A stretch of DNA of 30,636 nt from IMG/VR virus record IMGVR_UViG_3300032277_000051, positions 1-30,636 of that record. One strand, given 5' to 3'. The notes under the pieces were generated by a model. That model did no database searches. It was not told the origin of the DNA and saw nothing but the letters and a program-made list of their open reading frames with translations. Every line of letters starts with the position of its first letter. Positions within the stretch are counted from its first letter, which is position 1. Made by a program: the position numbers and the translations under genes. This DNA is from a virus. Taxonomy: Duplodnaviria; Caudoviricetes. This document shows positions 1,410 to 30,636 of the stretch, in pieces.

Positions 1410-1426
1410 TTTGTTTTGTTTAATAA

Positions 1427-4057: not shown

Positions 4058-4275
4058 GTCGCTGATTTATTTGATTGCCTATTAAACAACCTTCTAATTG
4101 CATAACTTCTGAAAATACTTGCTATCGTAAATACAATAGTAATGATTACATTTTGATTCAAATTAACTTCAATATCCAAAATTGGATAAATTATAATTTG
4201 AATAAAAAATGACATTGTAATGCCCACTATAGTATTAATAATGCTTTCTATTAAACTTTTTATTTTAGTCTGCAT
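4054..4275 (-). CDS. Small two-TM membrane protein (family often found next to phage methylases)
   Basis: MQTK.KSLIES..N..VG...N..IT..FT..S..RSY..RR.FN pattern, two hydrophobic helices; translationally coupled at both ends. Confidence 0.75.
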   Translation of the reverse strand: MQTKIKSLIESIINTIVGITMSFFIQIIIYPILDIEVNLNQNVIITIVFTIASIFRSYAIRRLFNRQSNKSAT

Positions 4276-6455
4276 CAGAATAGTTGTAGTACAGATTGCT
4301 TTTCATTAACACAATCTTTATGATTCTTTGCATTAATCTTGAAATAAGATTCTTTTAATTCAATTGATATGCTTTTTCTGTTCATTTTTAATGCTTGAAA
4401 ACCTTCTGAACCAACACCTCCAAATGGTGATAATACTGTTTCACCTTCATTAGAATATAAATGTATTATCCTTTCAATCGTATCTAATTGCAAAGGACAA
4501 ATATGCTTTTCATCATTTCCATCTCTGCCACTCCTGTATTGCAATGTGCGCTTATAATCCACATCCATCCATACAGGAGATGCGTATTTTTGCCATAAAT
4601 CAACAGGTAAATAATCTGCTTTGCTTTCATCTTCTGATTGATGAGTTATTGGAACTTCATTATCTCCTTCGTTTCTGAAAAATAAAATATAATCCGGAAT
4701 ACCAACTCTACTCATGCAGCTATCTTTTTTTATTGTTTTATGCAATAATCCTAATGCTTTAGTTCTCTGCATTTCAGTTACAGGATTCTTCCATATTGTA
4801 GTTTTCGCATGATAAATAAATCCCTCATTTGTAAACCAATCAATCAACATTCCAGAGAAGTCCCTCAATCCAATGAATCCCTCTTTGCCTTTTTGTATTG
4901 GTAAATCCATGCAATGAACTGCACATATTCTGCCTTTTTTCAAAGTTCTTTTTAGTTCTGGAATAAGATATTTAAAATGCTTTTCAAATTCTTTGTAATT
5001 AGACACATTGCCCATATCCTCTGCTTTATCAGAGTACACGTATAACTCTGCAAAAGGAGGAGAAAACAAAACTAAATCAGCACAATTATCTTTTAATCTT
5101 TTAGATTCTTGAACACAATCACCATTAATACAATGATAGTTTTCTGTTTTGATTTCTTTATTTTTTACAATTACATTTGACTTATTTAATTTATAATCTG
5201 TATTTGCTGAATAATTACTCATTTCTTTTATCATTGTTTTATGTTTTTGTTCTTTCTGTATTATTGTTTTCCTAACATTAATTTGGCTCTCTGGAACTAA
5301 TAAATGAACCTTCACCTTATTTAATTGTCCAAATCTATAACATCTCCTTACTGCTTGATAAAATGCTTCAAATTTAAAATCATAAGATGTAAATACCATA
5401 TTGCAACATTGCTGATAATTCATTCCAAATGATGCTATTGATGTTTTGGTTATTAAGTTTCTATATTCATTTTTTGCAAATCCATTTAAATGTTTAGACT
5501 TGTACTCTGGACTGTCTGAACCTTGAACATTTATGGAATCATCTAATACTTTTTTTAATTCATTCCCTTCATCATTTTTTAAAGTCCATATTATCCATTG
5601 CTCATTTGAGTTATTTACTAATTCAATTGTTTTATTAATCCTTGCTTTAAAACTCCTTTTTAAATCTTTGTGCAAATCAGTTGCGCTAACTGCAATATCA
5701 CCAAACAAGGACATTGTGTTGTTTTCAACAGGGATGATATGCTCAATGTATTCAATTTCTGGCAGGTTATATCCTTTAGAATCAAATCCTAATGTTTTTG
5801 GATTATCTAATGATATCGACCATGTACACACATATTTCCAAAAATCATCTTGAGCATGTTTTCTTAATCTCCATTTTGATGTTTCACCACCATCATGCAC
5901 AAAATACATCGCTAACATTTCTAAGTAACTCATTGCTCCTAAAAATTCGCTATGCTGCCCTAATTCCATATGGTCATTTGGAGATGGAGTTGCCGTACAC
6001 GCTAATTTATAAGGAGTTGATTCAAAAGTATTAATAATTAATCTGCTTAATTTGCCATCTCTGCCTTTTAGAATGCTGCTCTCATCAAGCACAACACCGG
6101 AATAAATACTGCAATCTATATTTTTCAATTGGTCATAGTTGGTTATATCGAAAGCATCTTGATTAATATTAAACTTTATAGATTCTAATTTAGTCTGATT
6201 AACAACTGCTAATGGAGCAAGAACTAATACCTTCTTTTTTGTTTTATTATATACTTGCTCACACCATGATAGCTGCATTAGTGTTTTGCCTAATCCACAA
6301 TCTGCAAATATTGCAAACCTGCCTTTTTTTAGTGCTATTTTGACTATATGTTTTTGAAAGTCAAAAAGACTACTGTTTAAATTATCTTCATCTATATCGA
6401 ATCCAGATGATATAAATTTCTTTTTCTTATTTTTTAAAAAATTATCGTATTTCAT
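4275..6455 (-). CDS. SNF2-like helicase fused to an amino (N4-C/N6-A) DNA methyltransferase
   Basis: N-half: DCGLGKT, LDESS, TATP, QAVRRCYRFGQ. C-half: FSPPF catalytic motif, HICPLQ and SPFGGVGS SAM-binding motif (beta-class order). Confidence 0.92.
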   Translation of the reverse strand: MKYDNFLKNKKKKFISSGFDIDEDNLNSSLFDFQKHIVKIALKKGRFAIFADCGLGKTLMQLSWCEQVYNKTKKKVLVLAPLAVVNQTKLESIKFNINQDAFDITNYDQLKNIDCSIYSGVVLDESSILKGRDGKLSRLIINTFESTPYKLACTATPSPNDHMELGQHSEFLGAMSYLEMLAMYFVHDGGETSKWRLRKHAQDDFWKYVCTWSISLDNPKTLGFDSKGYNLPEIEYIEHIIPVENNTMSLFGDIAVSATDLHKDLKRSFKARINKTIELVNNSNEQWIIWTLKNDEGNELKKVLDDSINVQGSDSPEYKSKHLNGFAKNEYRNLITKTSIASFGMNYQQCCNMVFTSYDFKFEAFYQAVRRCYRFGQLNKVKVHLLVPESQINVRKTIIQKEQKHKTMIKEMSNYSANTDYKLNKSNVIVKNKEIKTENYHCINGDCVQESKRLKDNCADLVLFSPPFAELYVYSDKAEDMGNVSNYKEFEKHFKYLIPELKRTLKKGRICAVHCMDLPIQKGKEGFIGLRDFSGMLIDWFTNEGFIYHAKTTIWKNPVTEMQRTKALGLLHKTIKKDSCMSRVGIPDYILFFRNEGDNEVPITHQSEDESKADYLPVDLWQKYASPVWMDVDYKRTLQYRSGRDGNDEKHICPLQLDTIERIIHLYSNEGETVLSPFGGVGSEGFQALKMNRKSISIELKESYFKINAKNHKDCVNEKQSVLQLF

Positions 6456-6468
6456 TTGTTTTGTTTTA

Positions 6469-7212: not shown

Positions 7213-7950
7213 TTATTTGGTTTTATTTATTTGTAAATCATTTAATATGTTATCAATATAACCTCTGCACTCAATCACTCGCTGATTAATCTGCTCAATC
7301 ACTTCATCATCTCGCTTGATGTCAAACACTTTGATTCTGTGTTTATTATCAATGTTGTCGTAATTGTAATCTTTTGCAAATGAATTGTAACTATAATCCT
7401 CTGCAAATTCATCCTCTGCAAATTCGTCATAATCAATATCATCAGAGAATTTATAATCTCTCCTAATCAATGATTCTGGAGTATTCATCAAGGTGTAAAT
7501 CAACTTGTAATGCTTTGCTCCTGTGAGATTTAAATATCCTTGTGCTTGATAATAATAATCTTTGTTAGGCACATCATCACAGAACAAAGGAAAGGTTGAG
7601 AAATCCCATGAATTTTTTACATCAATAACCAAATCACTATCAGCAAATTTTAAATCCTCACCTTTGATAATTAAATCCGGTGTGCCTGTCATGTACTCAT
7701 CTGTGAAAAACATTTCATTCTTGACTAATCCTTTCATCCCCAAATACTGTGAGATAAATTTGATTGAATCATTCTCACACATATTGCCCTTGTCAAGATA
7801 CTTGGATTTTATACGCTTTCTCCTGTCGTATATTTTCTCCTTAATCCACAAGTCAAGATATGATTGTGTTGTCTTGCTCAACTCACCCTTCTTTCTTGAG
7901 TTAGTCATTATCTGCCCAATGGCAGAACATCTAATTTTAAATGGAATCAT
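7213..7950 (-). CDS. YqaJ/lambda-exonuclease-like recombination nuclease
   Basis: IRCSAIG, KGN.CE, GTPD, DVKNSW and YYYQAQGY motifs. Confidence 0.85.
   Translation of the reverse strand: MIPFKIRCSAIGQIMTNSRKKGELSKTTQSYLDLWIKEKIYDRRKRIKSKYLDKGNMCENDSIKFISQYLGMKGLVKNEMFFTDEYMTGTPDLIIKGEDLKFADSDLVIDVKNSWDFSTFPLFCDDVPNKDYYYQAQGYLNLTGAKHYKLIYTLMNTPESLIRRDYKFSDDIDYDEFAEDEFAEDYSYNSFAKDYNYDNIDNKHRIKVFDIKRDDEVIEQINQRVIECRGYIDNILNDLQINKTK
7396..7425. repeat. Perfect 15-bp in-frame tandem duplication
   Basis: ATCCTCTGCAAATTC twice, encoding EFAED-EFAED in the exonuclease. Confidence 0.9.
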
Positions 7951-8333
7951 TTGCTGCCTCCTCTCTTGAAATCATCTGCTTCATCTTCACCAAATACTTG
8001 CAAGGAGTAGAATCCTGTAAGTTTCAATACTGCTCTGCTCATGGCTCTCTTTTCTGCCATAGCAACCGGATAACTGTTTGATGTGTTTGATGGTGAGGCC
8101 TCGCCAAATGTTTCAATACTTACATCATCCATCTTTGCGAATGCTTGAATGATAATGTGTTTTGTATCTTCTGAATTGAATTGCAGTTTGTAGTTGATTT
8201 CAATACCTGCTGCTGCTTGAATTTTATCAATGCCAGACCTTGTGATTATTGTATAAAATTTATGCTTAAAATAATCATCTGTTGTTAGGCTGTACTTTTG
8301 ATACAACGCATTTAATTTTACTGGATTTGTCAT
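7947..8333 (-). CDS. Putative ssDNA-annealing protein (Rad52/Erf-like fold)
   Basis: TFGEA...YPVAMAEKRAMSRAVLKLTG...EDEADDF motif; adjacent to the exonuclease and SSB genes. Confidence 0.6.
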   Translation of the reverse strand: MTNPVKLNALYQKYSLTTDDYFKHKFYTIITRSGIDKIQAAAGIEINYKLQFNSEDTKHIIIQAFAKMDDVSIETFGEASPSNTSNSYPVAMAEKRAMSRAVLKLTGFYSLQVFGEDEADDFKRGGSK

Positions 8334-8344
8334 GTTGTTTTGTT

Positions 8345-8599
8345 TTAGATTAAATTTAATTCGTCTGTAAAATAGTCTAACGTAGATTGATAGACTGATT
8401 CATCAATCAGCTTTAACTGATAACCACTATCACTCCGAAAATAAGAGGAGATGTGAAATGTGTTAATGATTGATACTTCTTTCCGGGATAGGTTGATTTC
8501 AACACCCTTGCTTGTGGATTTTAGTTTTACAATGCAGGTGATTGTATCTTCAAATACTGCTTCAAAATATGCAGGGTACTTTAGTTCTGTAATACTCAT
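8345..8599 (-). CDS. Hypothetical protein (84 aa)
   Basis: ORF with A-rich leader and an upstream promoter motif. Confidence 0.7.
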   Translation of the reverse strand: MSITELKYPAYFEAVFEDTITCIVKLKSTSKGVEINLSRKEVSIINTFHISSYFRSDSGYQLKLIDESVYQSTLDYFTDELNLI

Positions 8600-8622
8600 C
8601 GGTTGTTTTGTTTTTAGTTATT

Positions 8623-8641: not shown

Positions 8642-9034
8642 TTAATAAATAGATAGTTCTGCAATCAAATCTGCATCTCTTTTGTTCTCTCTTTTGCGTT
8701 TCTCAATTCTTTGTTGAGCCATTACAATCTTGAGATTGATATCATCCAACTCCATCCTTCTCACAATAGCAATGTAATCCTCTCTCACTTTTTTGTTGTT
8801 GATACTGAATTGGTTTTCAATGACCTTTGCTGAATGCACAACACTTGAATGGTCACGGTTAATCAAATCTCCTGTTGGCTTACATTTGTGGTAATGTCTG
8901 ACCTTTGCCAGATAGCAATACATTTGTCTCACCTCAATCAACTCTGATAATCTGCTCTTGCTCTTTACATCTTCAATGTCTTGCTCATAGAATGCGCAGC
9001 ACTCTCTCAAAATAATATTTAAATCTAACTTCAT
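8642..9034 (-). CDS. DnaA C-terminal-domain-like HTH protein
   Basis: SKSR..ELIEVRQMYCYLA...GDLINRDHSSVVHS matches the DnaA domain IV signature (R.HSTV.H). Confidence 0.8.
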   Translation of the reverse strand: MKLDLNIILRECCAFYEQDIEDVKSKSRLSELIEVRQMYCYLAKVRHYHKCKPTGDLINRDHSSVVHSAKVIENQFSINNKKVREDYIAIVRRMELDDINLKIVMAQQRIEKRKRENKRDADLIAELSIY

Positions 9035-9417
9035 TTTGTTTTTATTTGTTTTAGTTTATTAATGTAATTCTTATCTGTTGCATAACCTCTGTCAGTTAAA
9101 AACTGATAGTAGTCACCGCCTTTGTAATGTCGTTTCTGCCATCTCTGATAATAAGCAATGGAATCTTGCCATGAATCAAAAATCAAGTACTCACCTTTGT
9201 ACCGGAAACCAAATAAATTATGTCGATGTTTGCATGAGTAACTTGATAGCCATCCTGTTTCCAGAATAATCTGCTGCAATACAATCTCCTTGTGTTGTAT
9301 CTGTGACGCATTTAGATGCGTTTTAACGGACTTAATTGATTGCGCTGATAGTTCACCTATAACGCACAAAATAAAGATGATTAAAAACAACAAATATATT
9401 TTAGTCTTTTCGTTCAT
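9031..9417 (-). CDS. GH73-like glucosaminidase with N-terminal signal/TM segment
   Basis: Q.ILETGW, HNLFG and GYATDKNY motifs; hydrophobic N-terminus. Confidence 0.85.
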   Translation of the reverse strand: MNEKTKIYLLFLIIFILCVIGELSAQSIKSVKTHLNASQIQHKEIVLQQIILETGWLSSYSCKHRHNLFGFRYKGEYLIFDSWQDSIAYYQRWQKRHYKGGDYYQFLTDRGYATDKNYINKLKQIKTK

Positions 9418-9748: not shown

Positions 9749-9936
9749 CCTTTCAGTTTTATTAGTTGTAGTCTTACTTTAAGCCAATAAGACGAGGAGA
9801 GCATATTGCCATCGTACTCTTTTAAAAATGGAATGTAAATAATTAATTTTTCTGCACATATTATTGCATGGTCAATGTTGCCATCAAATTGCAACAACAA
9901 GTCTTTCGCTGATAGTTCTGGATTCATAATTACCAA
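9745..9936 (-). CDS. Hypothetical protein (about 60 aa)
   Basis: Packed ORF; A..CAE.LI...YW..V pattern reminiscent of small Bacteroidota phage proteins; exact start uncertain. Confidence 0.65.
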   Translation of the reverse strand: MVIMNPELSAKDLLLQFDGNIDHAIICAEKLIIYIPFLKEYDGNMLSSSYWLKVRLQLIKLKG

Positions 9937-10190
9937 ATATTAATGTTTACAACTGCTGAAATTGATGGTGTATCTGTACCACATGATGAGCAAATGCCAA
10001 CTGCGTACTGTATCATTGAATCACCATCAACACTATTTGCGTTGTATTTGAGTAATGACGTTTGACCGCAATCACATTGGCATGATGAATTACTCCAGAC
10101 ACCATCTTTAAATTTATTATCTGATTCAAATGAATCAATGATAATCTGCTTTGCTTGTTCTTGAGTTTGTACTGCTTGATAAATTTTCAT
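9930..10190 (-). CDS. Hypothetical early protein with CxC/CxxC motifs
   Basis: CQCDCG and CSSCG suggest metal binding; strong A-rich leader. Confidence 0.7.
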   Translation of the reverse strand: MKIYQAVQTQEQAKQIIIDSFESDNKFKDGVWSNSSCQCDCGQTSLLKYNANSVDGDSMIQYAVGICSSCGTDTPSISAVVNINIW

Positions 10191-10470
10191 TTTGTTTTAG
10201 TTTTTAATGTGAATGAGAATGAATTTTTTTAACAAGAAAACAATCTTCCCACCAGTTTCCATTTTCTACTTTATGGGGTTGGTTTACGGTTACTATTTCT
10301 ATCGTTTTACTTCCTATGGCTTCGGACAATTCTCTACCTTTTAAATCAGTATTAAAAAAGAATTGCAACCATGATTCAACAACATTTCTACCTAATGAAT
10401 GAGATTGATTTGTAAATATCAAATTGATATTAAAAAATTTTTGTGTTTTCATTTTGTTTTAGTTTTTAAT
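10184..10470 (-). repeat. 25-bp direct repeat covering the leader and start of the first two early genes
   Basis: TTTTCATTTTGTTTTAGTTTTTAAT at 10184-10208 and 10446-10470 (mRNA sense ATTAAAAACTAAAACAAAATGAAAA). Confidence 0.9.
10204..10452 (-). CDS. Hypothetical protein, first gene of the early operon
   Basis: 82-aa ORF after the divergent AT-rich intergenic region; bracketed by the 25-bp repeat. Confidence 0.7.
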   Translation of the reverse strand: MKTQKFFNINLIFTNQSHSLGRNVVESWLQFFFNTDLKGRELSEAIGSKTIEIVTVNQPHKVENGNWWEDCFLVKKIHSHSH

Positions 10471-13514: not shown

Positions 13515-14046
13515 CTTTTTTACCATAATACTTTTTAGCTTGTCCTAAATATAACCCTGTCCTTGCAGCAGATTTCAATGGAGATACCTCACCGCCTTCA
13601 TCATTAGTACAGTACTCCGGGAATAATGATGTATTGCAGGTCAAGTAGTCAACCATCTTCATACCGTAAAAGTCTGCTTTGCGTTGTGCTTTCTCCATTA
13701 AGAAATTCAATTCTTGAAATGATACTGTTTGACTGTTCTCACTATTCTTGGTTGATGTACCTTTGTTTCTGATTTTATAGTTATTCATGTAGATGATGTC
13801 ATGTTCTGTCCACTTAACCAAAGTATTCACAACATAATCATTCATTAATGTCAAGTAATCACCTGTTAATGTACCACCAATTATCTTAGTCTTTAATGCC
13901 TCATACAATCGTGTGCCTAATAATGGCTCAATGTACATTGCTTGAGCATCTTGTATTGCAGCAGTCAGCACCTTTGCACCTACATTATCAGATACAACCG
14001 TGTTGCTTTTAAAGTAGTCTTCCGTAATAAATAATACCTTTGCCAT
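13486..14046 (-). CDS. Head-tail adaptor (DUF6712-like)
   Basis: LFITE...I..AQ..YI.P.LGT.LY..L pattern; TAATG coupling to the portal stop fixes the start at 14046. Confidence 0.7.
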   Translation of the reverse strand: MAKVLFITEDYFKSNTVVSDNVGAKVLTAAIQDAQAMYIEPLLGTRLYEALKTKIIGGTLTGDYLTLMNDYVVNTLVKWTEHDIIYMNNYKIRNKGTSTKNSENSQTVSFQELNFLMEKAQRKADFYGMKMVDYLTCNTSLFPEYCTNDEGGEVSPLKSAARTGLYLGQAKKYYGKKDARYWESNS

Positions 14047-16073
14047 TATTGTTGTTTTTTTCTTATGATAGTCTGCTGAAAAATATGTCTGCACCACGGG
14101 GTGATTCTGCCGGTTGTAGGATTATTGTAATATCCACCTCTGGATGTAAACACATCTAATCCTTGCCCATTGCTCAAACCGTTAATCTCTTGCCTTGAAT
14201 ACAGTTTACGTTGTGCCATCATTGAGATACAGAAATTTCTTGACCTACCTTTTAATGCAGGTGCATCAGAACGTAGAGCATATCTGTATGCAATTGATAA
14301 CTGACTTTTCGCAATCTCTGCAACCGTATCCTCACCATCTTTTGTGACTTGTCTTTCAACCAATCCATTTGCATCTGTTACAATGTTTAATGCACCTGCC
14401 TCTTGCAGCTTTAACAATGAATCATTAACAACATCATCCGGGAGTTTCAATGCCCTTGACAGGTCTTTAATTGATGCGTTAGGATTGTTCTGCACTTGCT
14501 CAAGGATTGCCATGTCTGTTGCTGACAGATTAGGTATTGCAGCGAACTTATGCAACTGCTTTTGTGCATTATCATCCTCAATTAGAAAATCCTCAATGCT
14601 TGTGCATTTTAATTCCTTTACAGATAGAATCTCATAATCTGATTCGTCAACTCCACAACTTTCAAAATGAGATAATATAGTTGATTCAATCTCATCTTCA
14701 TTTGCAAATTCACTTGTGGTTGTTGTTGTAGTTCGCTTGACCTCTCCAACATCTGGCAATCCAACCAATGCTCTTATCTCTGCAACAGACATATTGTCAA
14801 GTACCTTCGTTGCAACCAATGGTGATATCATTCCAATTGCCTCTGCAACAGGATTTGCACCCCCCTCAATTACATCAAACCCCATCATCTCACGTATCTC
14901 CTCTTGAGTAAGATTAGCAATCATTGTTGCAGTATCTAATTGCGCACCAATTGGCTCTAATGGTTTTATCTCTAATATTCTTGGAATACCATTCACAGAG
15001 ATAATTGAGTTGAATACAACCTCTTGCTGCTCTTGCTTTGGAGTTGCGTACCTTGATTGATAAGCAGCTTGTGCAATTCGCATCTCATCAGCATTGTTGC
15101 TCAATCCGTTCTGCCCTTCTTTCCATCCAAACAATATTGGATTGATAACCCGGTGAGCAACAAGTAATGTACTGTCAATTCGTTTCTCTAATACTTGATA
15201 CATATCAGATATGTTGCTTGGTGTGATTGGTTGAACCTCAACACTCCTGTCTTTGCTATCAGAGAAATTGAGCAAGAACTTACCTGCATTATCAGTACCG
15301 CTAAATTTATCCTCAATCATTCGTTCCAACTCCTCGGCTTCCTCATCTGTTGGGATGCCGTTGTTGAAACTCAACATCATGGTAGGTGTGAACCCGGATT
15401 GAATAGCAGACAAATCAAATTGAGCCAATTCAAAATCTGCTTCAATCATTGGGACTGCCGGTAGGTAAGTTGGCAAAGGATAAACTGTTTTTGAGTTTGA
15501 ATTGTCAACTGCTAAAATCTGCTTACCACCTTTCTCATTTACATTAAATGCCGGAATCATCTCGTAATCATCATTGCCCTCTGGCTTTCTATTACTCCAA
15601 TCCTCTGTAATATAGAACATGGATTTGTCTGCATTAGTTCTTACATATCTAAAATCAATGTAATTAACCTCTGCAATTTGCGTGTTGTCCTTACTCCAAA
15701 TCAATTCAAGATAATAACCACCATACAGAACATCATCAAAATTAATCTGTCTTGAAAGTTTGTTTAATGTTTCATCTGGATTCGGTGATGCAATGAACAA
15801 TTTTGCTTGTGCTATTGATTGATTAGTCACATTCGCTGATTGGTCAACACTCCATCCTCTGCCATTAATGAAATCAACCTTACCATCAACTAATGCACGA
15901 TGCTTTGCACTTCGATTATAAAGGTCAAGTAAGTACTGTGGATAGTTGTTTCTGTAATCCCTTTCCGTACCAAAGCAGATGTATTCTTTGTTTCTCTCCT
16001 CTTTGATTGTTGGCGGCTTTGCATCTGCAAAATTTAATGAGATTATATTATATTTTTGTTTTAACTTATCCAT
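14046..16073 (-). CDS. Portal protein with C-terminal extension
   Basis: YP.YL.DLYN.S.KH.A....K..FI.G.G, YPLP.Y, F.GTDNAGK, AHRV..P.LFG portal motifs; extra ~300 aa with a wHTH-like and a CRH motif. Confidence 0.88.
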   Translation of the reverse strand: MDKLKQKYNIISLNFADAKPPTIKEERNKEYICFGTERDYRNNYPQYLLDLYNRSAKHRALVDGKVDFINGRGWSVDQSANVTNQSIAQAKLFIASPNPDETLNKLSRQINFDDVLYGGYYLELIWSKDNTQIAEVNYIDFRYVRTNADKSMFYITEDWSNRKPEGNDDYEMIPAFNVNEKGGKQILAVDNSNSKTVYPLPTYLPAVPMIEADFELAQFDLSAIQSGFTPTMMLSFNNGIPTDEEAEELERMIEDKFSGTDNAGKFLLNFSDSKDRSVEVQPITPSNISDMYQVLEKRIDSTLLVAHRVINPILFGWKEGQNGLSNNADEMRIAQAAYQSRYATPKQEQQEVVFNSIISVNGIPRILEIKPLEPIGAQLDTATMIANLTQEEIREMMGFDVIEGGANPVAEAIGMISPLVATKVLDNMSVAEIRALVGLPDVGEVKRTTTTTTSEFANEDEIESTILSHFESCGVDESDYEILSVKELKCTSIEDFLIEDDNAQKQLHKFAAIPNLSATDMAILEQVQNNPNASIKDLSRALKLPDDVVNDSLLKLQEAGALNIVTDANGLVERQVTKDGEDTVAEIAKSQLSIAYRYALRSDAPALKGRSRNFCISMMAQRKLYSRQEINGLSNGQGLDVFTSRGGYYNNPTTGRITPWCRHIFQQTIIRKKQQ

Positions 16074-17923: not shown

Positions 17924-18448
17924 TTAAGCTATTGTCAAACCTGCAATAACTGCTGCATCTACTTGGTAACAGTCATGGCTGCTCTTTGCAAGTAGGTTTA
18001 TACTGTACTGATTGGCATCCCCAAATGCAGTACCGGATGAACTTGTATTCGTTCCTGTCTTGTGTGCGCCTCTCTCATCACCGATAAAGAAATAGTTTCC
18101 TTCAACAGTTTCAACGATTGCACACAATCTCTGGATTGCAAGTAGATGTAATTCAGCACTTTTTGCTGATTCCATTTTGTTTAAAGTAAACGACAAATTC
18201 ACATCATAAAACAATGAGTTGTTCTGTACGTTTTTATTTTCAGTTGATTCAAGCAATCCCGTTTCCTCTTGCAGATTGTAGGCATACCACGTTGATGGTG
18301 AGCCTGTATCTGTTATTGCAGAAATGAGATAAGATGCTTGTGTTACAGATACCAATTCTGTATATGGTAAAAGGAGAACCCGAACTAATCCGCCACTTGG
18401 CGCACTACAATCATATGCGGAAAATCCTTGCGTTAGAGCACATGGCAT
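17924..18448 (-). CDS. Major tail (tube) protein
   Basis: C.LT.G...C....GG, N.SLFY...L...L, IVE...G.Y...G...G, SGTAFGD.N.Y pattern; follows the capsid gene. Confidence 0.7.
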   Translation of the reverse strand: MPCALTQGFSAYDCSAPSGGLVRVLLLPYTELVSVTQASYLISAITDTGSPSTWYAYNLQEETGLLESTENKNVQNNSLFYDVNLSFTLNKMESAKSAELHLLAIQRLCAIVETVEGNYFFIGDERGAHKTGTNTSSSGTAFGDANQYSINLLAKSSHDCYQVDAAVIAGLTIA

Positions 18449-19452: not shown

Positions 19453-20100
19453 TTATTTTATTTTTCTTAGGTTTTTTATTTTATTTAATTTTTGCTCAAA
19501 CGACAATTCATCTTTTTTGAATGCGTCTAATCTTCTTTTTTTGGTTGGCTCAACTGATGGCTCTTTTGCAAACTCCTCAAGAGTAGAAATTACTTTCTTT
19601 TCAAACTCCTCATTTTTAGTAATTGCATCAACAATTTTTGATTCCAATTCTGCAAACTTTCTCTCAACTTCTGTCCGTTCAATCACAGTCTTTGGAGTTG
19701 GTGCAGTTGCAGTTGGCTCTGCTGATTCCATTTCTTCTTCAACCTCAACTTCTTCAGCAACTTCTTCAGCAACTTCTTCTTCTTCTGTTGCTATGATTTC
19801 AGTAATCACACCACCAACTGTGATAATCTTTTCACCACTTGCCAATGTATGCTCTGCATCTTCTGCCAGGACAATTCCATCTTCTGTCATTACAGATACT
19901 GATGCGCCCAATTCAATTGCAGGCTCAACATTAATTATTGTGCCATCTTCAAGTTGTGCATCAACAAACTTTGATTCCGTTGATTCTGTTGGCTCTGTTG
20001 ATTCTGTTGTTTCAACAACCTCCTCAACCGTTTCATTGAAAGCAATTTTCTTTAATGCCTCAATGTTATTTTTTAGATTCTCTCTAATATTCATTTTCAT
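19453..20100 (-). CDS. Capsid scaffolding protein
   Basis: Highly acidic; L.DGT.I...GAS V...DAEH.L..G..I...GG.I motif; between protease and capsid. Confidence 0.7.
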   Translation of the reverse strand: MKMNIRENLKNNIEALKKIAFNETVEEVVETTESTEPTESTESKFVDAQLEDGTIINVEPAIELGASVSVMTEDGIVLAEDAEHTLASGEKIITVGGVITEIIATEEEEVAEEVAEEVEVEEEMESAEPTATAPTPKTVIERTEVERKFAELESKIVDAITKNEEFEKKVISTLEEFAKEPSVEPTKKRRLDAFKKDELSFEQKLNKIKNLRKIK

Positions 20101-28715: not shown

Positions 28716-28991
28716 TTATCTACGTGCTTTCATTTCATTCATTTGTCTAATCTTCTCAATGTGTTCCTCTTTATCTTTGTAATACAACAACAGATTTAAG
28801 AACTCAAGCAATTTCATCTCATAATAAAACTGCCATGTTTCCGGTCTGCTATTGCTCATGTTATCTAATGTCACATACCATCCCCATTGTTCAAATCCTT
28901 TGCCACTTCCTGTAAGATTGCCTCTGCTTTTGTTAGTTGGTTGTTGCCATAATCGTTCATACTTTTTGTTAATTCTGCCCAAAGATTCCAA
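28716..28991 (-). CDS. Tail assembly chaperone, -1 frameshift extension (gpT-like)
   Basis: Frame entered at a T9 run inside the upstream gene; F..WGWY.....L...L.Y.K motif. Confidence 0.65.
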   Translation of the reverse strand: MESLGRINKKYERLWQQPTNKSRGNLTGSGKGFEQWGWYVTLDNMSNSRPETWQFYYEMKLLEFLNLLLYYKDKEEHIEKIRQMNEMKARR

Positions 28992-29509
28992 AAAAAAAGA
29001 GCAATTGGATAAGCATATCTGATGCTCATCTTTGTCCTAATTGCCTCGCTAACCTCTGCAAATAACTCACCGTTGTACTTTCCTTTCTTCCATCCAAATG
29101 CTTTCTTCTCATCTCTAATGACGACACACGTTAGTATCTTGTGCAAGTTCTGAATGATAAGAAAATCAGAGTTGTTACACTCTTTCAAGAAATGCATCAA
29201 ATCCATATACTGACCGCCTGTCATTTTGTGGATATCCGTTTCAATGTGATAACGAACTCCATCAATCTTGAATGTATCTGGCATCTCTTTCAGCTTATCA
29301 AACTCATTCAAGAAACTCAAATGCTTATTCAACCGTTTATAATCCTCAATGCTAATCTTCTTGATATCATCCAATGGTTGTCCAGATAACACCGATAGTA
29401 ATGCAGGTACACGTTCTATCAATGTCGCATCAGATGAAAGCACCGGGTACAACTCTGCAAAGTTTCCAACCGTTACTGCATCCCAATCTTTTGGTATGTT
29501 AATGTTCAT
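28871..29509 (-). CDS. Tail assembly chaperone (gpG-like)
   Basis: IP..W..VT.G, MT.GQY.DL and A.FF motifs; contains the slippery CTT TTT TTT TGG. Confidence 0.65.
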   Translation of the reverse strand: MNINIPKDWDAVTVGNFAELYPVLSSDATLIERVPALLSVLSGQPLDDIKKISIEDYKRLNKHLSFLNEFDKLKEMPDTFKIDGVRYHIETDIHKMTGGQYMDLMHFLKECNNSDFLIIQNLHKILTCVVIRDEKKAFGWKKGKYNGELFAEVSEAIRTKMSIRYAYPIALFFWNLWAELTKSMNDYGNNQLTKAEAILQEVAKDLNNGDGM

Positions 29510-29513
29510 ACTG

Positions 29514-29542
29514 TATAATATAATTTATTTACAAGTTGTCAC
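29514..29542 (-). promoter_or_regulatory. Late promoter motif, copy 4
   Basis: GTGACA-N14-TATATTATA-CAGT-ATG. Confidence 0.7.
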
Positions 29543-29599
29543 GCAACATGAATAATAAGAATTCCTATTAGTTTTAAGGGTGAATAAAAGGTGTAACAT

Positions 29600-29633
29600 A
29601 AAAAAAGGAGCAGCAGAATCAACTGCATACCCC
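29600..29633 (-). terminator. Rho-independent terminator
   Basis: GGGGTATGCAG-TTGATT-CTGCTGCTCC followed by T7. Confidence 0.75.
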
Positions 29634-29678
29634 TCTTTAAAAACTAAAACAAAACAAACCTTTAACCAAAGTTTGATA
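29600..29678 (-). ncRNA. Candidate ~80-nt small RNA antisense to early-gene leaders
   Basis: Lies between a TATCTTTG -7 element (29689-29682) and a terminator; no ORF; carries TTTGTTTTGTTTTAGTTTTTAA. Confidence 0.5.
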
Positions 29679-29694
29679 TCACAAAGATAATCAA

Positions 29695-30636
29695 TTATCT
29701 TACTTTGTACACTCCCTTATTGTTTAATGCCAATTCATTTAAAGCAACATATCTGATTGCATCCAGACAATGATTAAACATATCAACCGGCTTTCCTGTT
29801 GGTCTGTCATTCTTATCCATTGCCCACTTGTAATTCTTAAACTCCTTAATCAAGTTGTGAGAATCCTCTGTGACAAATATATCAAACCGCTTCAAGATAT
29901 CAATGCCATTATTGATACTGTCCTTTCCTTTCTTTGCCGGAAAGATATTCATACCCATCCGATACATCTCCTCAATTGACTTTGGCTCTGCTGAATCAAA
30001 AATGAATTTATCTCTGATGTCTATACCTTTGCTTTTAATTTCTTGTACAATATCTCTATTCGTGCAGCCAACCCTGTAAAGCACTTCTCTAAGATATAGC
30101 TGATTCCCTTTACACCATACCCCGATAATACTTGTAGGGTCAACAGAATAACCATAATCACCACCAAAGGCAACAAAATTACACCCACTATCGATGCTAC
30201 TACATAACTCATAATTTTCATATACTCTCCCTTTTATAACACCGTACTCACCTAATCCATAAATCTGCCAGAATGCCTTATCAGTTTTCTCCAACAATTC
30301 AATCTCTTGCACCAATGATTGTGGTAAGTATGTGTTGTGTTTATAATTAGAAACAATGACGTTAACATCACGTTCCTGTTGCTTTCTCTTTTGCTCTAAT
30401 TCAGTATTAATCCATACATCTTCATCATCCGGATTGAAATCTAAATAAATCTTATTCTCTGTTCGTATCAATAACTGAAAGAACTCCTTTCTATAATTCA
30501 ACTCATTTGCTTCATTACAATACAATATGTTTTGCTTTGAGCCTCTCAGCTTTTGCTCATCGTCTGCACCAATGAACTGCACAACCCTCTTGTCAAATGA
30601 GTATGTCTTTTTAGTCTTGTTATGCTCAACTTGATT
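29695..30636 (-). CDS. Terminase large subunit (PBSX/Terminase_3-like), 5'-truncated
   Basis: KLRG, NEANE (Walker B), DFNP, YGLGEYG, DYGYS.DP, DSAEP, NHCLDAIRY; frame open to the window end. Confidence 0.95.
   Translation of the reverse strand, partial: NQVEHNKTKKTYSFDKRVVQFIGADDEQKLRGSKQNILYCNEANELNYRKEFFQLLIRTENKIYLDFNPDDEDVWINTELEQKRKQQERDVNVIVSNYKHNTYLPQSLVQEIELLEKTDKAFWQIYGLGEYGVIKGRVYENYELCSSIDSGCNFVAFGGDYGYSVDPTSIIGVWCKGNQLYLREVLYRVGCTNRDIVQEIKSKGIDIRDKFIFDSAEPKSIEEMYRMGMNIFPAKKGKDSINNGIDILKRFDIFVTEDSHNLIKEFKNYKWAMDKNDRPTGKPVDMFNHCLDAIRYVALNELALNNKGVYKVR

Follow-up and report, generated by a model that had tools for sequence, protein, structure and literature searches.

A conserved structured RNA unit behind terL carries an exposed core complementary to early start regions in a probable Flavobacteria phage

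Results and Discussion

Immediately behind the gene for the terminase large subunit (terL), a 30,636-bp phage sequence (the window, meaning the whole stretch of DNA that was analyzed) carries an ORF-less stretch that runs from a putative promoter to a terminator and whose conserved, exposed seed is the complement of several start regions. There is good support for a conserved, structured RNA unit with an exposed core that complements early start regions of the phage itself, and the unit is a real, conserved and non-random feature. We consider it reasonably probable that this unit is a multi-target antisense RNA that would damp early translation. Coordinates of the unit, its neighbors and the leaders that it matches are given in Table 1.

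Phage and gene layout

The window is the entire record G000 (92% complete), and its genes are nearly all encoded by the minus strand. Early genes form a block (10452 to 192) with methylases, helicase-like genes, an SSB of DUF3127 and an exonuclease, and a late block (29509 to ∼10841) encodes tail, tape measure, head protease, portal, endolysin and holin. Among cultured records, the portal matched Nonlabens phage P12024 only and the SSB matched Flavobacteriia phages only; these matches point to a host within the Flavobacteriia, and the phage probably infects Flavobacteria-type bacteria. A prophage search of genome contigs returned a best relative with 59% TerL identity and none higher, and so pointed to no host. 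No tyrosine integrase was detected in records G000 to G004 (60 to 97% complete), and no antirepressor or repressor was detected among 45 ORFs scanned against Pfam and PHROGs. Neither database gave a match for gene 7947-8333, for which the label “annealase” used in a preliminary description of this DNA was not confirmed. The portal protein (gene 14046-16073) has a C-terminal extension with an AsnC-type helix-turn-helix (residues 517 to 560).

Table 1. Positions of the RNA unit, neighboring elements and matched early leaders in the window
Feature	Position	Strand	Basis or remark
C5 methylase 453-1409, target leader	1410..1421	−	12 nt
SNF2-helicase/N6-N4 methylase fusion 4275-6455, target leader	6455..6468	−	14 nt
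Gene 7947-8333 (ahead of exonuclease gene), target leader	8335..8348	−	14 nt
Gene 8345-8599 (own TATATTTG box), target leader	8603..8614	−	12 nt
DnaA-C-type HTH gene 8642-9034, target leader	9045..9057	−	13 nt
Gene 9930-10190, target leader 2	10190..10207	−	18-nt exact match, includes A of AUG
First early gene 10204-10452, target leader 1	10452..10469	−	18-nt exact match, includes A of AUG
Late-type promoter motif (TGACA, 13 nt, TTATATT) before gene 28871-29509	29517..29541	−	Motif; putative function
Predicted ∼78-nt non-coding RNA (5′ hairpin, single-stranded core, terminator)	29600..29677	−	Fold
Intrinsic terminator hairpin and U7 tail	29600..29638	−	Terminator scan and folding
U/G-rich core (seed)	29637..29659	−	Leader match
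5′ hairpin, 8 bp	29655..29675	−	Fold; replaced by unrelated hairpins in other lineages
Bacteroidota housekeeping -7 box TATCTTTG	29682..29689	−	Motif; putative promoter activity
Terminase large subunit (terL), 3′ part	29695..30582	−	Pfam Terminase_3 and Terminase_3C, PHROGs terminase; 5′ end removed by contig end

Architecture and predicted fold of the unit

Read along the minus strand, the terL stop is followed after 5 nt by the -7 box, a hairpin, the unpaired core, the terminator and U7. A minus-strand unit of ∼80 nt bounded by a -7 box and an intrinsic terminator had been claimed beforehand, and both boundaries were recovered, the box as TATCTTTG at 29689-29682 and the terminator by scan and by folding. 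With the spacing given in PMC6847099 (excerpt), the RNA is predicted to start at A 29677. The ∼78-nt RNA folds at −24.5 kcal/mol (z = −5.16; equaled by 0 of 200 shuffles), and 16 nt of it (29639-29654), coinciding with the 18-nt leader match, are predicted to be unpaired with a probability of 0.92 for the RNA alone and 0.71 when terL sequence is placed in front. Three minus-strand terminators of ≤−10 kcal/mol were found in the window; that of the unit is the strongest, the site after 17924-18448 excepted, and the other two lack a U/G core. The core is present in G000 as one copy, its other matches being the two 18-nt leaders only. The -33 TTTG element is absent from the putative promoter of the unit; in promoters of F. 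johnsoniae this element is weak (PMC6847099, excerpt). No Rfam match at gathering score was obtained for the window or for contigs L013, L017 and L147, with the FopS model possibly outside the models searched, and a scan of 29000-30636 gave only a chance U6 match (E = 0.79) elsewhere in that stretch.

A separate element, a ∼50-nt insert with a near-perfect palindrome, lies between the terminator and the late promoter (29545-29595). It is shared by the window and a more distant lineage (L015, L016 and L017, with a perfect AATAAGAATTCTTATT in L015 and L017) and is absent from the closest relatives (L004 to L010 and L012 to L014). This insert is possibly an operator or a packaging-related site.

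Complementarity between the core and early start regions

Matches of at least 12 nt to the core (range, 12 to 18 nt) were found in 7 of 17 early start regions, the 17 being those with a clear ATG (three more early ORFs, whose starts are uncertain, are not counted); among 18 late start regions the best match was 7 nt, in agreement with the earlier statement that late genes lack the leader. Coordinates and match lengths previously reported for six early genes (18, 18, 14, 14, 12 and 12 nt) all held, and the count of “at least six” was extended by an overlooked seventh leader of 13 nt (9057-9045, gene 8642-9034). Beginning at 29637, the plus strand shares 18 identical nt with the minus-strand leaders at 10469-10452 and 10207-10190. 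These two leaders are also the two best duplex sites genome-wide, each with a predicted 22-bp duplex over the AUG that includes G-U pairs (−20.9 kcal/mol).

The sequence is of low complexity. Against composition-matched shuffles the proposed complementarity nonetheless stood, as 0 of 2000 reached the summed match and 0 of 2000 reached the summed duplex energy. Because the core had been chosen after the fact, all 1671 U-rich minus-strand 23-mers were ranked, and the core took rank 1 (152 vs 122 for the next). Ten of the 17 early genes lack this leader, so that any silencing of the early regulon would reach only part of it or act indirectly. The idea of one sRNA set against that regulon is supported in part, as a conserved, structured unit with an exposed complementary core.

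Conservation of the unit among relatives

Of 80 terL loci in viral contigs, 78 extend past the stop codon; the unit was carried by 15/15 of those with 68 to 98% TerL identity (one cut off after the core) and, as judged by eye, by 0/63 of those at ≤57%. Metagenome loci gave the same picture, with the unit in 4/4 at 74 to 97% TerL identity and in 0/69 at 53 to 63% (73 of 80 loci inspected, leaving out four duplicates and three truncated loci). Conservation of the proposed sRNA in relatives is thereby borne out for every locus examined with TerL at least 68% identical.

The 18 complete loci represent 12 distinct unit versions, and the -7 box together with a 5′ hairpin is kept in 18/18. Thirteen of the boxes are full TAnnTTTG and five are TAnnTTTA, with variation at the two free positions; the final G of this box is near-invariant in TAnnTTTG -7 boxes. 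All nine versions that were folded had z scores of −4.0 to −5.6 (0 of 200 shuffles each). The unit is conserved by replacement of hairpin sequences: 5′ hairpins and terminator loops vary by lineage, and the U/G core stays. Automated alignments of two subsets, with 17 and 22 pairs, contained no compensatory change on both sides of a pair (RNAalifold).

Some individual contigs showed features of their own. The two ends of record G001 overlap across the RNA unit with a few differing letters, suggesting a circular record that is probably a mix of strains. In L012, TerL is 76% identical to that of the window, the unit 93% and the downstream gene 97%; L012, like L429 and L430, thereby marks the terL end as a recombination junction. 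Eight of the 69 distant loci (L453, L456, L457, L464, L475, L477, L479 and L482) carry other promoter-terminator units right after terL, some of them in tandem, and with a terminator in common, from which it appears that the post-terL site collects more than one kind of small RNA unit. These other units showed no match to their own leaders (26 to 196 of 200 shuffles did as well, self-overlap in L456 aside).

Joint change of core and leaders

Early leaders differ by lineage in the whole records G001 to G004. The core of G002 has an 18-nt exact match to a leader of its own genome, in front of a gene that differs from the window's best target. Across six lineages, three of which were chosen after their match was seen, the exact-match fit on the own-lineage diagonal (seed and genome effects removed) was reached by 2 to 6 of 720 permutations, and the fit by energy by 15 to 63 of 720. 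No own-lineage preference was seen for G001 and P12024S, and G004, whose core has an extra U that gives a bulge against its own first leader, adds little. In a set of 26 dereplicated core-plus-terminator loci from partial contigs, own-leader preference is weak (mean rank, 0.40; 4/26 below 0.1). The tendency of cores to fit the leaders of their own lineage best may thus reflect joint change, with support by exact match and a weak signal both by energy and in the 26 loci.

The same 26 loci bear on another explanation, namely that the unit is a mere 3′ end of the terL message (a terminator plus a U-rich tract), or an RNA that binds a protein through its U-rich stretch, and that the leader match simply follows from leaders being A-rich and 3′ ends U-rich. 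Consistent with this, 18/26 loci are no more than ∼30 nt away from a stop codon, -7 boxes are confined to 3/26, their own-leader preference is weak, and the window unit itself begins 5 nt past the terL stop without a -33 element. Against this, the other two minus-strand terminators of the window lack the core, and so do host terminators; a search for core plus terminator in 151 Flavobacteriales genomes gave 10 matches vs 15 control matches, and a general host terminator feature was rejected on these counts. The first rank of the core as an early-leader complement among the U-rich windows, and the retention of the -7 box and 5′ hairpin at all 18 complete loci, likewise argue against it. Origin from a 3′ end is in any case compatible with pairing in trans. 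We regard a plain message end or a protein-binding RNA with a by-product leader match as unlikely.

Similar units in other phages

The same four-part anatomy was found after the lysis genes of an unrelated phage (L147 and L151; GC 0.45, other gene order), where the unit sits just ahead of an early promoter and its core matches the phage's own early leader over 12 nt. A promoter-core-U-tract pattern run over viral contigs returned 89 stretches, of which four fold below −15 kcal/mol; these four are two of the window's clade plus L147 and L151, and the remaining stretches look like chance and were rejected as real units.

Seven cultured phages were examined, and cores of the window type are limited to P12024S and to Cellulophaga phage phi10:1, which infects Cellulophaga baltica. 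None was found in morran9-1, V156 and BK687P2, and phages 11b and 1/32 have weak or different cores only. Across the seven, 10/43 terminators have upstream 30-mers that beat at least 95% of shuffles, under a null that is lenient. In phi10:1 a near-identical core lies between the major capsid stop and a terminator (core region L390:34012-34070); in the first 50 kb of this 53.7-kb genome it matches 6/77 non-structural and 0/20 structural starts over at least 11 nt (10/2000 shuffles). In P12024S, the core after gp03 matches the gp24 leader by 13 nt. Two further sets of units were noted. On the minus strand of phi10:1, at ∼19975-20045, there is a separate U/G-rich unit with its own promoter and terminator, and free-standing units that combine a -7 box and a U-rich seed at the 5′ end occur in P12024S (L306:10190-10245), L205, L254 and L265, those of the last three containing CAT in a layout closer to FopS.

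The leader in host genomes

The pattern AAACAAAACAA-N0-5-ATG occurs four times in the 30.6-kb window and 80 times in 26 Flavobacteriaceae genomes (∼90 Mb, or ∼0.9 per Mb) vs 39 reversed-pattern controls; the 80 occurrences amount to ∼3 host targets per genome in a set that may not include the phage's own host. Core matches of at least 12 nt were found in 0/279 host ORFs (400 kb from three Flavobacteriales genomes, again possibly without the phage's own host). The A-rich initiation signal of Bacteroidota consists of A-3, A-6, A-12 and A-13 (PMC6847099, excerpt), and the preliminary description had taken this signal to be the target. As the leader is rare in hosts, it is better viewed as an address that is enriched in phage and uses the A-rich signal as its base than as the signal itself. 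Its rarity and the 0/279 ORFs also led us to reject, as the main role, both host shut-off and a generic initiation signal of the host.

A real RNA might still be aimed mainly elsewhere, either at related phages with the leader, which it would exclude from co-infection, or at a few host genes, which it would silence. The window core does match leaders of phi10:1 and G001 by 13 to 14 nt, some host genes do have the leader (the excess over reversed controls above), and c4 RNA mediates heteroimmunity between P1 and P7 (PMC12197685, excerpt). Yet the best matches (18 nt, within a 22-bp duplex) lie in genes of the phage itself, cores tend to fit best within their own lineage, host targets are few or, at 12 nt, none in the ORFs searched, and the absent integrase suggests no long resident state, which together make a main target in other genomes quite improbable. 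Finally, a function of the repeat at the DNA level (in recombination, or as an operator bound by a phage protein, for example the DnaA-C-type HTH product) or its origin as a relic of a lost plus-strand gene leader is very improbable, for although DNA sites function in either orientation and the region is a mosaic junction (as in L012) near which several contigs end, the leader motif abuts the start codon even in mid-operon genes without a promoter box, the inverse copy is predicted to be single-stranded between two conserved hairpins, and a plus-strand ATG after the motif, already stated to be missing at this locus, is absent both in the window and in 17/18 related loci, on which ground the relic was rejected.

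Late transcription and a proposed mode of action

The motif TGACA-N12-19-TT(A/T)(T/C)ATT precedes four structural-region genes on the minus strand (29541, 20751, 20142 and 17865), and the genes right behind it have short leaders without the address. In G001 to G004 the motif also occurs a few genes ahead of terS, with no terminator of ≤−10 kcal/mol between it and the RNA unit; it is therefore likely that the terS-terL message is a late one, with the core at its end. A like layout, with no separate gene, is seen in the cultured phages phi10:1 and P12024S. An ORF of G001 near the motif and upstream of terS (L173:3005-3577) has a weak match to sigma-70 region 2 (E = 0.0097, below the cut-off). 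The motif itself resembles the E. coli sigma-70 consensus (TTGACA ... TATATT), which to our knowledge is not used by Bacteroidota polymerase.

Judged by sequence features only, the unit has a host-type promoter, a single-stranded seed and an intrinsic terminator. Under the antisense reading, the host-type -7 box would drive a stable ∼78-nt RNA. Because transcription of terL would terminate in the unit too, a late message could supply the RNA with its 3′ end, and this late terS-terL message, together with genome copy number, would add to the supply. Directly before the start codon of seven early genes stands a leader of the AAAC(U/A)AAACAAA type, with which the predicted unpaired U/G core would pair, and pairing would likely keep ribosomes from loading on the first early genes as well as several internal ones. 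Since the duplex would cover about −17 to +4, the zone of A-3, A-6, A-12 and A-13, we infer repression rather than activation; and since one core mirrors seven early start regions, one RNA would likely turn them down together. Early expression might in this way be turned down as infection proceeds, as an early-to-late switch or as copy-number feedback in a phage without an integrase. The TAnnTTTA boxes at 5/18 loci, the missing -33 element, the modest covariation, the low complexity of the sequence, the ten early genes that lack the leader, and the missing unit or core in phages with 53 to 63% TerL identity and in morran9-1, V156 and BK687P2 count against the antisense reading.

Comparison with known antisense RNAs

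Blocking of start regions by sRNA pairing has been shown in Bacteroidota for FopS (PMC11697453, excerpt). FopS and GibS of Bacteroides are ∼65 to 80 nt long, one FopS member is derived from a 3′ UTR and one copy lies in a phage; as in the window unit, a host -7 promoter and a single-stranded seed before an intrinsic terminator are combined with pairing to many start regions, the last being a prediction in our case (PMC11697453, excerpt). The FopS seed lies at the 5′ end of the RNA and contains the complement of the AUG and following codons, whereas the window core is internal, behind a 5′ hairpin, differs in sequence from the FopS consensus R1/R1′ and covers mainly the leader (PMC11697453, excerpt). 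Moreover, FopS is multicopy and directed at host glycan-uptake operons, in contrast to a single-copy, phage-encoded unit with its own early genes as predicted targets (PMC11697453, excerpt). In its predicted working the unit is like FopS or c4, yet it belongs to neither.

The c4 RNA has a tRNA-like fold and is processed by RNase P, and the window unit gave no Rfam C4 match. Like c4 of P1 and P7, a phage RNA that acts in trans near the ribosome-binding site of the phage's own mRNA through exposed pairing regions, the unit is predicted to pair in trans at start regions of its own genome; c4 targets a single antirepressor mRNA in a temperate phage, whereas the window unit would address seven scattered leaders in a phage without an integrase (PMC12197685, excerpt). 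The sar RNA of P22, OOP of lambda and aQ are likewise phage antisense RNAs that tune developmental timing, but they overlap a single target on the opposite strand, whereas the window unit lies ∼19 to 28 kb from its several targets (PMC12197685, excerpt). Each of c4, sar, OOP and aQ thus has one target gene (PMC12197685, excerpt). In the open-access literature, as represented by excerpts, we found no account of a Bacteroidota phage RNA directed at a leader that early genes have in common.

Implications

Two aspects are new: a late-type promoter ahead of terS in relatives that would also drive the core, and a near-identical core behind the capsid gene of cultured phi10:1, in which the proposal is testable. 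More tentatively, many Bacteroidota phages might switch from early to late by RNA alone, with a phage-specific address before early starts and its mirror either in a separate small gene or before late terminators (those of terminase, capsid or tail messages); late transcription would then itself stop early translation, and address and mirror would co-evolve within each lineage; we hold this generalization to be possible rather than probable. If the antisense reading of the window unit is true, one RNA that addresses the phage's own gene class through a common leader would be a protein-free timing switch, and such a switch would suit a phylum whose ribosomes read upstream adenines and not a Shine-Dalgarno sequence.
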